A stretch of DNA of 64,000 nucleotides from Phoronis australis (taxonomy: Eukaryota; Animalia; Phoronida). Positions 6,016 through 41,255 of this stretch are shown here, piece by piece; the stretch's first letter is position 1, and each line of letters begins with the position of its first letter. A program made the translations under genes and the position numbers. Location: the NCBI GenBank assembly GCA_002633005.1, contig NMRA01000057.1:894005-958004 (forward strand). Reading direction: 5' to 3'. The notes under the pieces are model-generated. The model had not been told where the DNA came from. It worked only from the letters and a program-made list of their open reading frames with translations, and ran no database searches.

Positions 6016-6604
6016 ATGGCTTGCATGCATTGGCTCACTGCAATACTCTCTTTGCATTACGTAGTAGCGGGAGAATCACAACTGACAGCTTCAGACAGTT
6101 GTAACCAGACGAACACCAACAAAACTGAGCTGGACTTGCTAAAGAAGATTATGAATTCAGTCCTCACTAAGCAGTCGACTGCTGAAGATGTGGTTACTAC
6201 GCCTTTAAATGATATCCAACTGCTACAGCTAAAAATGTCACTGGAAGAAAAGACCAGAAATCTGGAAAGGGAAATAGAATATTCGAAATCGAGACAAAAT
6301 AGCTACGTGATTGGTCTTGCCTCCCTTTCCTACAGAGTTCATATGGTGGAATCACAGCAACAACAGATTGGAAGACTGGTGACAAAACAAGCCTCCCTCG
6401 AGGCTCGTCAAGATCTGATGATGACTCAGTCACATTGTCAGGTACCTGAGCTGAACGACTTGAAGAAGCAAGTGGCTGACCTATCAGCCAATCAGAACAA
6501 ACTCCAAGAACAACTGGATGACCTGAGGAAAATGTTGAGTAAGTGTGAGACAAAGTTAACATCAGTGATCAGTGCCCAAGTTGCTTGGAAGACCAAATTT
6601 ACAG
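6016..6604 (+). CDS. Gene A exon 1: signal peptide + coiled coil of a secreted FReD protein (model 6016-6604, 11574-11701, 11949-12045, 12231-12395, 14969-15255; ~421 aa)
   Basis: MACMHWLTAILSLHYVVAG signal-like start; L/Q/E/K-rich heptads; donor CAG|GTGAAC is phase 1 and fits the FReD exon acceptor; donor is weak so the 3' boundary is less sure. Confidence 0.8.
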
Positions 6605-7028
6605 GTGAACAAGTCAAAAAGGAACTATTACTGTTTCCTTATCAATAACATTTTGCTCTCACGGGCCATTTTAGAGTGTCAACAAATTATCTTACAATAT
6701 ATAGCGCGGATGTGCGATCTTGCACAAAGAAATAACAAACTTGTTTTACCTCTGCTAAACTGTAGAGAACTTTACACCACAAATCAATACACTGATGGCT
6801 GTTGAAGGACTAGGGGTATAGAGAGAATTTGCCATGTTTTTATATTTAATACACCGTTTCCTTAAACAGATTCCAAACATAATTCTAAGAACTTCACGCT
6901 CTGAGCAAGAAAGTGAATCTGGTAATAATGTTGAAAGAAAATGAAAAAAAACAAAGAAAATCAGCATTTTATAGAATGAATAATACATTTCAATAGTTCG
7001 TGCTGGGATTAATAATTTTGTATTTCAG

Positions 7029-7046
7029 ATATTTATCCTTCAAAAA
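7029..7046 (+). CDS. Candidate 18-nt phase-1/1 microexon of gene A (DIYPSK)
   Basis: ttttgtatttcag|ATATTTATCCTTCAAAAA|gtgagt; strong splice sites, frame-preserving, no stop. Confidence 0.4.
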
Positions 7047-7144
7047 GTGAGTCTCCGGATTTTGGGAAACCGAAGTTCGGAAAAACACAAAATACCACAC
7101 TCTGTATCCATTTACATGTACAGCATTTAGTAAATTTGCCAATT

Positions 7145-7281
7145 TGTGTGTGTGTGTGTGTGTGTGTGTATGTGTGTGTGTGTTTGTGCGTGTGAGTGTG
7201 TGTGTGTGTGTGTGTGTGTGTGTGTGTGTGTGTGTGTGTGTGTGTGTGTGTGTGTGTGTGTGTGTGTGAGAGAGAGAGAGG
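7145..7281. repeat. (TG)n(AG)n microsatellite
   Basis: Direct reading. Confidence 0.97.
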
Positions 7282-7609
7282 GAGACCTTTATTCACATTA
7301 AAGCATAATGATCTTAATCATTGAATTACGTCTTAATGTAAATAAAAGCTTTTAGAATGCCTCCTATTTCAAAACGCAATTATTTTTAAATAGTTGCGTT
7401 TTAAAAAAGGAGGCCTTCTAAATGTTTTCAACTGCTGATAAGAAAGTCCCCTGAACAAAATTAAATAAATAAATAAGTGGAAATACAAAAATCCTTAGGG
7501 ATAAGTGAATAACCAAAATAGGAATTCGTCGAGTGTTAACTGTTTGAGATGACGTTTATGTAGGGGACCATGAGAGGCCTTTGTCAACGGTAATACCAAG
7601 GAAAGAAAA

Positions 7610-8830
7610 ACTGTCCACATGAGGTATAGATAATTTTTCTATAATTTTTGAGATTATTGGTAGAATAGAAAAGGGTCTATAAATGCCAGGGTGCTCTGGG
7701 TCCAAACCGTGTTGTTTAAAACAGGGATTACCTTAGCAATCTTTAGAGCATCTAGAAACATACTAGTGTGCAAGCATTGGTTGATGATGGTCGTGAAACG
7801 TTCAATAATAAAAGGATTGCTTATTTTGATAACTTTAGACCATAAGTTGTCATGACCAGTACTGTTTTTTGAGTCCATGTCTCTTTTAATATCTAGTACA
7901 TGTTTATTATTAAATAGTTGAAAGAGAATTTAAATGCGTTTGGCGTGGCAAGATTTTTGTTGTTTGTCATAGGTATTGATTCAGAAAGGGATGGGTCGAT
8001 TTGGGTAAAGTAGGTATTAAATAAAGTTGCCATTTTGGGTAGGTCACTGGGTTTAATGTTATCTGAATGTACATGTAAGAGACATTTTGGAGTGCCATTT
8101 TATGTTCGTACGCCGTTATTCATAACTGTCTCTATTGTATCCCATGTTTTATTCACGTCAGACTTCACTTTTTCAAATGAGTCATGACAGTAAGTTTGCT
8201 TGGTAGAATAAATATTTTTGATAATGTTGTTGTATACTTTAAGATTGTTGTGGAATGTATGGTAGGATTGTGTGTTGCAAGTGGTTGCCTTCGTTTGTTT
8301 GTAGAGTTTATATCGGCAACGAATGGATATTAAGATGCCACGAGTTAAACGCGTGTTTGTGTTTATTATATCTCTTAGTAACATTTTTGGATCAAAGTAT
8401 TTTTTCGTGAGATTTTTCAAAGCATCACTGAGCATTGCGTTATTGTGATTAAGGTCACAACCTAATCTGCGGTCTAATTTTTCCATTATATTGGAGTTTC
8501 GCAAGTTATTGAGAAATTGAGTTTTTGTTTGCGGTGCGTAATAATATTTTGAACCTAACGTACATGTAGAGCATTCAGGGTGGAGTTTCTATATTATTTT
8601 GAAGCAATGAAGATAGGACAGTTATCTGAAATCTGAAGAATACCAGAATGTGTATGGTGTGACCGTATGTTGTTGATGTAAAGAAGTAAACTATTGAAGT
8701 TGCTGAGGTGGAGCTAAGACGTGTAGGGTATATTGGCTAATGGAAGGTCTTAAATTGTCATTTATCATCAATTCATGAACGTTTGAACGTCATTGTTAGT
8801 TTGTGTCCCTAGAGGATTTAAGTTGTAATG
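7610..8830 (-). mobile_element. Decayed CR1/L2-group LINE ORF2 fragment in gene A intron 1
   Basis: Peptides TRGILISIRCRYKLYK, VKSDVNKTWDTI and KNSTGHDNL..TIINQCLHTSMFLDALKIAKVIPV, typical of the endonuclease-RT linker and RT N-terminus; many stops; ends approximate. Confidence 0.8.
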
Positions 8831-10134
8831 CAATTTCTAAAACTTGGGAAATTTTGGCTTTAGGATCAAACATTGGAATTTATTTTCCACTGCCTCAATC
8901 AAAAAGTTTTCTTAAACAAGGTATTTTCATAGACTATAATGCATTGACAATTGTCAACATAATCTGCTCTAGCAAACTTTGAATACGGTGTTGAAATCTA
9001 GTGATGGATATTGAAATCACGGACATATATAGATATAGAGACACATCTGTCCCAAAGAGACTATACTTCATTACGTACCATGCCCCCGGAGTATTAAAAC
9101 CAAAGGTGCTTTCCCATTATAGGAAATTTGGTTTACCCAAGCTTTGCCAAAACTTAGCTAACCTTTCTCACTAGACAGCACTATCGAAGTAAAATCACAA
9201 CATGGCGATCCAGTCAACCCAGTCAACACCAGTTGGCACAGTTCAATCCTACTCGCAGACGAATATCGAGTGGTGGGATCGAGGCTAACTGAAAATTATT
9301 CTTCCGCCATTTACCACAGAGTCAAAGAAAATGAACAGTCTCACTTTTCATTAGATGTGTATTATTTTACTTATTTACGTGCATACAGAAATAAGAAACA
9401 ATGATGACCTGAAATGTACCAACTACCTAAAGTGACTTAAAGCAAAGAACACATTTTGCAGAATATCTCACTGAGTCGTGCGTGATCCTATATCGTTGCC
9501 ACGATATCTACCAATAATTTCGCCGAAGTTTCGTTGAGACCTTTCCCATTACACTAAAGTTTTGATGAGGACCAAAGCTTTGCTTTTAAATCCTGTTATC
9601 TTCAGTTAATTTTCGCTTGCAGATTAGCTACCGAAGTTAACTTTTCCCACTTAATGAAACTTCGCTAAAAGCGAAGTTTTGCCTCTAGTGTGAAATGCAA
9701 GAAATTTTCAGGTTCGATTAAATTGGAAAAACAAGCTCATTGTGTTGTTACACAATGTTGTGCTTAAGTTGACTATGCAGTTAGTTTGCAGCCACAAAAT
9801 CGAATCAGCAAGTAAAAGCTAAGTCTGATTTCTCTGAAAGTCAACCGTTTCTAGTTATTCGAAGTTTTTTGTGATAGTATTCATAAAAATACATCTTTTT
9901 CACAATATTTGTTGAAACTTGTTTCCAAGTAGTACTTTTTAAATATCGGTTACCGTCAGACTCTCATAATTGCTGGCTTACGTGAGACTATCAGAAGAAA
10001 GTAGACTATGAGAGCATAGCCTTAGGCAAACATTGGTTTGACAGCTTTCTCTCCTTACTATTGCTGTCAAACTGACAATGTTACTGTTGTTACCCGATTT
10101 CGCGATCACCAAAATCGGGAAACTCGCTCTACAG

Positions 10135-40315: not shown

Positions 40316-40397
40316 CTGTGTGCACGCATGCGAGTGTGTGTGTGTGTGTGTGTATGTGTGTGTGTGTGTGTGCGTGCGTGCGTGCGTATGCGTATGT
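40316..40397. repeat. (TG)n/(TGCG)n microsatellite, homologous to 11439-11490
   Basis: Lies ~80 nt upstream of FReD exon a in both duplicons. Confidence 0.9.
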
Positions 40398-40472
40398 ACA
40401 ACGGTATATAGTTTGATGAAACCTTTGATAAGAACATGGAACTGTAAAGTCATCGCCAGCATCTAGTTGTAG

Positions 40473-40582
40473 GAGAAGATTGTGCATATTTTTACAAAGC
40501 AGCGTTCACACCATCCAACCAAAAGATGATGCTGGTAAGATGTAGGTTCACTGACATGGTGACCAAAAGAGGAGGTTGGATG
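40473..40582 (+). pseudogene. Dead FReD exon a in copy B
   Basis: Homolog of 11574-11701 with a 16-nt deletion, GAG>TAG, and a 2-nt deletion in the YCDM codons. Confidence 0.92.
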
Positions 40583-40812
40583 GTAAATTATATACGGTGT
40601 CTTACAAAGCACCATCTCCATTTTTATAAGAAATGCTTAATGAACTAAAAAAATTCACTAGATGAAAATAACTGAAAAGACCATAATTGGTTTGATCACT
40701 TAACACTCATGGAAACATACACTAGCTAATATCATTCATTTGTTTATGTGTAAAAAACTCATTAACTAATCAAAACAGGGTATATAAAGAAAAAAATACT
40801 TGGTATAACCAG

Positions 40813-40905
40813 GTATTCCAGAGATGCCAAGATGGGTCTGTTGACTTCTACATATAGAGGTTGGTCTGACTATAAGGCAGGATTTGGTGACCGAGTTTTG
40901 GTTGG
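40813..40905 (+). pseudogene. Dead FReD exon b in copy B
   Basis: [13 protein letters not shown] then a 4-nt insertion giving TAG; 8-nt deletion before FWLG. Confidence 0.92.
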
Positions 40906-41090
40906 GTAAATTTTTTTCACTTCTACACTGTACATCTTGAATACATTTAAATCTTCACTGATAAGATAACACTAAATGATTCAAAATGTCTTAGAAAATG
41001 GAATTCAGCAACAGATTTCAAATTCACTAACAACGCCATGCTGCTTTGGGATCGTTAAATTACCATGCGTTTAAAATAATATAATTGCAA

Positions 41091-41255
41091 GTAAAAACAA
41101 CATTGACCGGCTGGCACACCGAGCCACCTACACGTTACCTGTTGACTTGGAAAACTTCAGCAATAAGAAGGTGTACGCTGCCTGTAATGCTTTCTCTGTT
41201 TGGTCTGAGAACGTGAAGTATAAGTTGACTCTCGGGTCATATTCTGGCACCGCAG
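41091..41255 (+). pseudogene. Dead FReD exon c in copy B
   Basis: Same 165-nt length and open frame as 12231-12395, but acceptor AG>AA and donor GTAAG>GCCAG; exon d homolog not found. Confidence 0.9.

Follow-up and report, generated by a model that had tools for sequence, protein, structure and literature searches.

The 64,000-nucleotide (nt) stretch of the Phoronis australis genome analyzed here, the window to which all coordinates refer (+ strand unless stated otherwise), carries two paralogous genes, A and B, that place different C-terminal heads behind a hydrophobic N-terminus and a helical stalk: a fibrinogen-related domain (FReD) in A and an olfactomedin domain (OLF) in B. Each copy also retains a dead remnant of the other's head. 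Comparison of the window with itself revealed a tandem duplication, with duplicon A at ~3.3-14.5 kb and duplicon B at ~31.5-41.8 kb. An earlier note on this DNA had proposed a dot-plot of 3-15.5 kb against 31-43 kb; the blastn counterpart of that check yields collinear blocks (A 3268-14490, B 31484-41790; 67-79% identity), such as 5747-6479/32390-33126 (79%), 10133-10582/37643-38116 (73%), and 11123-12479/39985-41337 (67%). Together with Pfam matches these blocks bear out the common order of promoter, signal/stalk exon (exon 1), OLF, and FReD that the note had described. The promoter and leader blocks (A 5747-6015, B 32390-32668) are 87% identical over aligned columns and the other non-coding blocks 75%. 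That A and B are two haplotypes of one gene was ruled out, as their non-coding divergence reaches K=0.31 (1724 columns) and the same runs contain transcripts of both.

Two expressed genes and their splicing

RNA evidence was drawn from X1, a contig set that we guess to be RNA, and from the raw RNA runs X2, X3, and X4, of which ~18-19% was read. The splice joints listed are 15 of 53 for A and 15 of 19 for B, and the loose read ends 24 of 841 and 24 of 414, respectively. The live features of the two genes are as follows.

Gene A
5747..6015 (+): putative promoter and 5' leader, with a TATA-like box at 5957-5963
6016..6538 (+): exon 1, hydrophobic N-terminus and helical stalk, ending in the phase-1 donor of window-like reads
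6539..6604 (+): extension of exon 1 up to another phase-1 donor, the one that divergent alleles or copies use
11574..11701 (+): FReD exon a, phase 1 to 0 (Pfam PF00147, joints)
11949..12045 (+): FReD exon b (PF00147, joints)
12231..12395 (+): FReD exon c (PF00147, joints)
14969..15255 (+): FReD exon d, with the calcium-site and S1-pocket positions and the stop (Pfam, joints)

Gene B
32390..32668 (+): putative promoter and 5' leader, with a TATA-like box at 32611-32617
32669..33725 (+): exon 1 of 352 codons, encoding the hydrophobic N-terminus and a long helical stalk and ending in a phase-1 donor
34079..34141 (+): 63-nt exon 2, phase 1-1, without counterpart in A, both joints in reads
37566..38347 (+): OLF terminal exon with its own stop (Pfam PF02191)

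The four FReD exons of A, which the earlier note had called intact, tile positions 2-44, 45-77, 78-133, and 141-220 of the 221-position Fibrinogen_C profile, each above the Pfam cut-off, and are joined in RNA at 11701>11949 (260/262/92 reads in X2/X3/X4), 12045>12231 (226/197/60), and 12395>14969 (273/218/7, plus 20 divergent reads in X4). Their ends, given differently before, are corrected to 11701, 11949-12045, 12395, and 14969. The stretch used for mapping A did not include exon 1, and the exon-1 junction was read from 30-letter consensuses of the loose ends at the FReD-a acceptor, compared by eye (agreement 0.99-1.0 in the rows listed). These consensuses equal window positions 6509-6538 exactly in X2 (430 reads) and X3 (330 reads), and 6573-6602 with one or two mismatches in an X1 contig and in X4 (109 reads). 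The junction 6604>11574 claimed earlier is thus present in the divergent reads of X4 and X1, but window-like reads use the donor at 6538; donor usage tracks sequence type, with the runs rich in divergent FReDs using 6604 and the window-like runs 6538. At least three haplotypes of exon d (14969-15255) occur in the RNA data. The spliced frames of 399 or 421 amino acids have no internal stop, and the molecules end at 15285-15289, behind a poly(A) signal at 15278. The earlier note had held that its view would fall if transcripts left the FReD exons unjoined to the stalk exon; the loose ends at FReD a are exon 1. A FReD with its own first exon is ruled out for present-day A, since RNA joins FReD a to the stalk exon.

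In B, the OLF domain (37565-38344) scores 168.3 bits against a cut-off of 23.9 and covers positions 7-244 of the 246-position profile, making it full length and C-terminal; its 3' untranslated region (UTR) extends to ~38865, with poly(A) signals at 38800-38843. Joint 33725>34079 is carried by 14/10/7 reads (X2/X3/X4) and joint 34141>37566 by 14/16/3, each along with an X1 contig, and the spliced frame encodes 633 amino acids without an internal stop. The earlier claim of an intact OLF exon with its own stop therefore stands, as does that of phase-1 acceptors matching the stalk donors for both heads (37566 for OLF, 11574 for FReD a). The B stalk is joined to OLF, as the reads across 34141>37566 show, but consists of two exons rather than the single one described. 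By junction reads, A transcripts are 12-18 times as abundant as those of B.

Several further observations touch these genes. An A-only insertion of 1.6 kb in the FReD intron c-d (~12480-14100) has short imperfect inverted ends and TTAA flanks, is heavily covered by reads on both strands, and is one that we take to be Kolobok-like by its terminal pattern. Two X1 contigs are 89-91% identical to the long stalk of B at 33218-33522, beside a 98% contig; in these divergent contigs all six listed changed codons are non-synonymous, and they possibly represent a third copy or a divergent allele. Intron 1 of B (33735-34041) has antisense reads only, at depths of 8.4/8.3/2.3 in X2/X3/X4, and there is an X1 contig at 33698-33850.

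Dead heads, deletions in A, and a candidate neck exon

The remnants of the discarded heads, and one further candidate exon, are:

10133..10566 (+): dead OLF of A, with three stops, four frameshifts, and the 3' half deleted
38956..39067 (+): candidate decayed internal neck exon in B, with consensus acceptor and donor, deleted in A
40473..40582 (+): dead FReD exon a of B, with deletions of 16 and 2 nt and one stop, splice sites intact, depth 0
40813..40905 (+): dead FReD exon b of B, with +4 and -8 nt indels
41091..41255 (+): dead FReD exon c of B, frame open, acceptor and donor lost, depth 0-0.85

The OLF of A, previously judged disabled, is indeed so: its three stops fall within 139 aligned codons, its four indels shift the frame, its acceptor region is unrecognizable, and depth over its bins is 0-4.1 versus 29-257 in the exon bins of A. 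The same judgment on FReD exons a-c of B holds in view of four frameshifting indels and one stop over the three together and the lost splice sites of exon c, exons a and b having kept theirs; the correction needed is that B has no exon d, no remnant of which was found by blastn or tblastn. The acceptor of FReD a is in phase 1 in both copies. Reads on dead exon b of B are A reads, their loose ends being exons a and c of A. This exon is also unusually close to A compared with the other dead exons (4 substitutions in 29 codons), which reflects either gene conversion or chance.

Relative to B, gene A has undergone two deletions. The first covers B 33205-34415 (~1.2 kb), comprising ~170 stalk codons, the exon-1 donor, and exon 2 with its donor, so that the part of B exon 1 at 33205-33725 has no counterpart in A. 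Beyond it, A 6585-6763 is homologous to the B intron at 34415-34609 (score 108 versus a maximum of 37 in 300 shuffles), and the last 20 nt of the A extension (6585-6604) derive from ancestral intron. As neither of the two phase-1 donors of A lies at a GT in B, both would most simply be new. The second deletion removed B 38100-39089, and with it the 3' half of OLF, the stop, the 3' UTR, and the poly(A) signals; its breakpoint in A is 10567/10577, and A 10577 rejoins B at 39089.

Within the second deleted segment lies the candidate neck exon, between the OLF poly(A) site of B (~90 nt upstream) and FReD. It has 112 nt (111+1), a GC content of 0.48 against 0.325 in its flanks (P=4e-4), and a phase-1 frame with one stop and two N-glycosylation sequons. 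On both strands of the window (128 kb), 3 of 24 acceptor/donor pairs pass the same exon filter, the other two being an SRCR exon (Pfam E 5e-13) and a stretch within the coding region of a Pao retrotransposon. Its position before FReD fits a single transcription unit in which FReD would need an upstream stalk.

A proposed ancestral gene with two terminal branches

What the locus holds is plain: two differently spliced genes, a dead remnant of the other head in each, two deletions that set A apart from B, and both heads originating in the duplicated segment. Given that each head is alive in one copy, the duplicated segment should have carried both in intact form, the revival of a dead exon being unlikely. 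We propose that the two expressed tandem paralogs probably go back to a single gene with alternative terminal branches, split by duplication and reciprocal loss into two genes with one product each. FReD a opens with a phase-1 acceptor and thus requires an upstream exon, and neither a likeness to a promoter or signal exon nor a convincing ATG-to-donor first exon was found in the spacers; these facts, together with the position of the neck candidate, make one unit with two branches the simplest reading. Furthermore, the B stalk followed by the A FReD is likewise in frame. The ancestor would have had a promoter, exon 1, and exon 2, followed either by the OLF exon, complete with stop and poly(A) site, or, upon skipping of OLF, by the neck exon and FReD a-d. 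After the duplication, one deletion is likely to have taken from A the OLF 3' half, the poly(A) site, and the neck exon, and a second one the distal stalk with exon 2, with new phase-1 donors arising in A; B would have kept OLF while its FReD decayed. The common stalk would let either head oligomerize, and possibly both together. The paralogs of this one duplication keep reciprocal exon sets, as in subfunctionalization of splice forms.

The deletions in A could also be explained by an ancestral pair of genes, one encoding stalk and OLF and the other a small FReD protein with its own first exon, in which case the deletion between 10567/10577 of A (B 38100-39089) would have removed the end of OLF, its poly(A) site, and the start of the FReD gene in one step, fusing stalk to FReD, and the FReD gene of B would have died. 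The absence of A's donors from B suits this account, and one frame at 38859-39067 runs for ~70 codons with a single stop and opens with mildly hydrophobic residues. However, the hydrophobic stretch is a T-rich tract just past the poly(A) site of B that lacks an ATG, and an acceptor of its own, at 38955, precedes the exon-like part. As this acceptor lies only ~90 nt past the poly(A) site, a promoter would need to sit within the OLF 3' UTR, and no first-exon likeness was seen in the spacers. We regard this history as improbable.

Still less probable, by a wide step, is an ancestor that made a single stalk-OLF-FReD protein from which each copy dropped one domain. The order of the domains on the DNA is consistent with it, and the neck exon could have bridged the two domains. 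Yet the B OLF reaches the natural end of the domain and is followed by a stop, a 3' UTR, and poly(A) signals, and neither the 120 FReD matches listed nor the one long OLF match (see below) is a protein with both domains. A, having lost the corresponding region, offers no comparison.

The one-unit reading was further weighed against rates of change. The dN/dS of live versus dead exons, a comparison suggested in the earlier note, is 0.46 for OLF (95% interval 0.27-0.77) and 0.44 for FReD (0.25-0.78), as would be expected from one constrained and one free branch; for the shared exon 1 it is 0.78 (0.49-1.36). When polarized with 88-97 of 120 outgroup FReDs per exon, the amino-acid changes in 118 FReD codons fall 20 on dead B and 4 on live A, with 12 ambiguous. 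At the four codons changed in A, B holds the outgroup residue; the B FReD therefore came from a working FReD. Its 20-32 changes compare with 34.5 (25-44) expected for a branch neutral since the duplication, a deficit with P=0.002, 0.05, or 0.33 if 0, 6, or 12 of the ambiguous codons fall on B. This is suggestive of a B FReD that may have outlived the duplication, with both heads under selection for a time. Similarly suggestive, the 51 differences in 139 codons of the A OLF, counted over both branches, against 40 expected from one neutral branch, are consistent with early loss, near the time of duplication.

The timing data also bear on the idea that one head was newly inserted, being intact but little used when the duplication occurred, and was recruited later by exon capture, whether as an OLF exon in an intron of a stalk-FReD gene or as a FReD cassette behind a stalk-OLF gene. 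Loss of the A OLF near the duplication agrees with it, as do the precedent of macaque TRIM5-CypA (PMC2279257) and the make-up of OLF, one phase-1 exon that brings its own stop and poly(A) site. But the insertion would have to fall shortly before the duplication, and the deficit of changes in the B FReD hints that both heads were selected for a time. A one-exon OLF is moreover no sign of retroposition, the myocilin OLF also being one exon, according to the title of a reference in PMC4206993. We consider this route unlikely, marginally more so than the ancestral gene pair.

Returning to the one gene with two terminal branches, subfunctionalization from such an ancestor agrees with the two heads intact in the ancestral segment and with the neck candidate, but the partition was not clean: among the losses of A are also ~170 stalk codons, exon 2, and the neck exon, and the donors it uses have no equivalent in B. 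The following points weigh against the proposal. A is not the unchanged ancestral FReD isoform, and neofunctional rewiring is part of the story. No read among the joints listed, which for A come from a stretch without exon 1, runs from the B stalk to FReD or from the A stalk to OLF; beyond the listed joints and loose ends, rare cross-head products may occur. The timing data tell that the heads were intact and cannot tell that they were expressed. The exon filter was defined after the neck candidate had been noticed, and the candidate itself has one stop, is 1 nt off symmetric length, has no expression in B RNA, and resembles neither a Pfam family nor another exon. The heptad contrast of the A stalk, 0.17, is below its shuffle maximum of 0.27. 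The protein and profile searches turned up no locus in which both heads are alive: the stalk profile has no relatives among 1,835,955,588 representatives, A exon 1 matches none of 1879 candidates among longer proteins, and OLF is absent from the 120 FReD proteins that were listed out of 489.

Exon d retrieved those FReD proteins, 489 of 654 candidates, with single-domain matches that are at most 76% identical and come from cnidarians, a brachiopod, amphioxus, and molluscs. In the search of OLF against longer proteins, 1 of 784 candidates matched (31% identity), and that long protein has no FReD. Neither stalk matches any of the 121 proteins from the FReD and OLF searches. A metagenome scan gave one weak match among 33 stretches (33% identity, E 3e-4), treated as chance, and a search of the ESM Atlas with the stalk gave only scores of at most 0.85, with low recognition.

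Elsewhere in the window there are local tandem duplications and satellite-like arrays at 1728-3695, 20396-21971, 24184-24804, 25284-25798 with 30855-31318, 45.6-50.4 kb, and 50932-53392; some copies are 97-98% identical, and they are recent duplications or assembly artefacts. Remnants of a Pao/BEL retrotransposon (195-1983, - strand) and of a long interspersed nuclear element (LINE) reverse transcriptase (17373-18191, - strand) were also detected, and a further LINE-like remnant at ~7650-8600 (- strand), in intron 1 of A, was recognized by eye with no Pfam match. The SRCR exon that passed the filter, an open 153-nt phase 1-1 exon at 59736-59888 (+) encoding half an SRCR domain (PF00530), belongs to another gene.

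Predicted products and comparison with known systems

The expressed A frame contains a complete Fibrinogen_C domain, as in fibrinogen-related proteins (FREPs), and we predict that A is most likely an oligomeric pattern-recognition lectin of the FREP type, secreted and bearing a rapidly changing acetyl pocket like that of ficolins and FIBCD1. The N-terminus of both proteins, judged by eye, is hydrophobic and is a putative signal peptide. By exon d, the A head is nearest, among solved structures, to ficolin-2, TL5A, and FIBCD1 (100-105 bits) versus 80 bits for ANGPTL6 and 75 for angiopoietin-2. In FIBCD1, the calcium ligands are D393 and D395, and the pocket is formed by Y405, H415, Y431, A432, and W/Y443, with the cysteines C401-C414 (PMC3908420). 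By cysteine-anchored spacing, their equivalents in A are D322 and D324, Y334, H344, F360, A361, and Y372, with C330 and C343; the phenylalanine at the Y431 position is also found in the aligned ficolin-2 chains. On these residues, A keeps the calcium ligands and acetyl pocket of acetyl-binding FReD lectins. In an X1 contig, 18 listed codons differ from the FReD of A, and 16 of these changes are non-synonymous, with pocket positions 360 and 372 among them; the 18 codons were drawn from 23 listed differences out of at least 32. For the B OLF, 10 of 18 listed codons are non-synonymous. So strong a pocket difference between alleles or copies points to a role in immune recognition.

For B, by analogy, we posit that the product is most likely a secreted amassin/noelin-like adhesive or clotting protein. 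All 39 sequences in the PDB that match its OLF at E<=0.001 are noelin, latrophilin, myocilin, or gliomedin, the best being 4xat and 6qhj (E 6e-35); the single-sequence AlphaFold2 model of the domain is nearly all strands at a mean pLDDT of only 39. The B stalk is all helix in its AlphaFold2 model (mean pLDDT 64.5), with residues 46-68 at low confidence and no strand, and its heptad contrast of 0.19 exceeds all 200 shuffles (maximum 0.15). Its N-terminal part has no cysteine between residues 4 and 98.

Secreted animal oligomers often bear different heads on similar stalks, as with collagen carrying FReD, OLF, or lectin heads. An intermediate stage of this kind of exchange is seldom observed. 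At this locus the two outcomes are expressed, and the head that each gene gave up is still there. The locus thereby provides a testable route of domain shuffling, in which an alternative last exon is added and then resolved by duplication; it connects two families generally regarded as unrelated and lets one expect that a switch gene can be found in sister species. It is possible, though doubtful as a whole, that a lineage-specific secreted stalk once switched by splicing between a sugar-binding FReD and an adhesive OLF, that the two chains form mixed oligomers bridging microbes to the animal's own cells, that the switch gene survives in relatives, and that FREPs and amassin/noelin proteins exchanged heads through an intermediate with alternative terminal exons, of which this locus would keep both fossils.

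Among known proteins, A resembles coiled-coil FREPs such as scallop CfFREP (PMC11741071) in its putative signal, predicted helical stalk, and C-terminal FReD, and the heads of ficolin-2, tachylectin-5A, and FIBCD1 in its calcium and acetyl-pocket positions. Unlike ficolins, it has no collagen stalk: with 2 glycines in 154 residues, Gly-X-Y repeats are absent. The label of angiopoietin-like given earlier to coiled coil plus FReD suits the layout, but the head is nearer to ficolin-2, TL5A, and FIBCD1 and the stalk has no homologue. Amassin is a disulfide-linked protein of signal, coiled coil, and OLF that clots sea-urchin coelomocytes, and the amassin/noelin type has an N-terminal two-strand beta-region with 2-3 cysteines (PMC2173732). 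B is like amassin and noelin/OLFM1 in its putative signal, long predicted helical stalk with cysteines, and C-terminal OLF, in keeping with the earlier label for that layout; however, its stalk is longer (~350 residues) and has no detected homologue, and the two-strand cysteine-rich N-terminal region is not seen in the model. Neither A nor B would thus pass as a ficolin, angiopoietin, or amassin ortholog.

The earlier note knew of no described OLF/FReD switch gene, and the titles and opening abstract lines in the searched literature, which mostly excludes subscription papers, agree; the passages searched in an olfactomedin review (PMC4206993) do not mention fibrinogen. A close parallel in head exchange is Asian macaque TRIM5alpha/TRIM5-CypA, with unrelated recognition heads on one coiled-coil front at one locus (PMC2279257). 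It differs in being intracellular, in that a CypA pseudogene insertion supplies the head, and in segregating as an allele; its abstract does not report a division into two genes. That splice forms can separate once a gene has duplicated is itself established (PMC4417111), as in SKI7/HBS1 (PMC3597508) and in zebrafish CUX1A/CUX1B, which split non-homologous alternative exons (PMC4494069, section 7) of the CUX/CASP locus (PMC11789633). As described there, the zebrafish pair shares with A and B common 5' exons and non-homologous 3' parts, one kept per paralog. CUX1A/B has a known unduplicated two-isoform ortholog, whereas the ancestor of A and B is read from fossils; and in A and B, unlike in CUX1A/B, the products are predicted to be secreted, the duplication is tandem, and both dead heads remain readable. 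The process is known, and the OLF/FReD pairing with unusually legible fossils is the new part.

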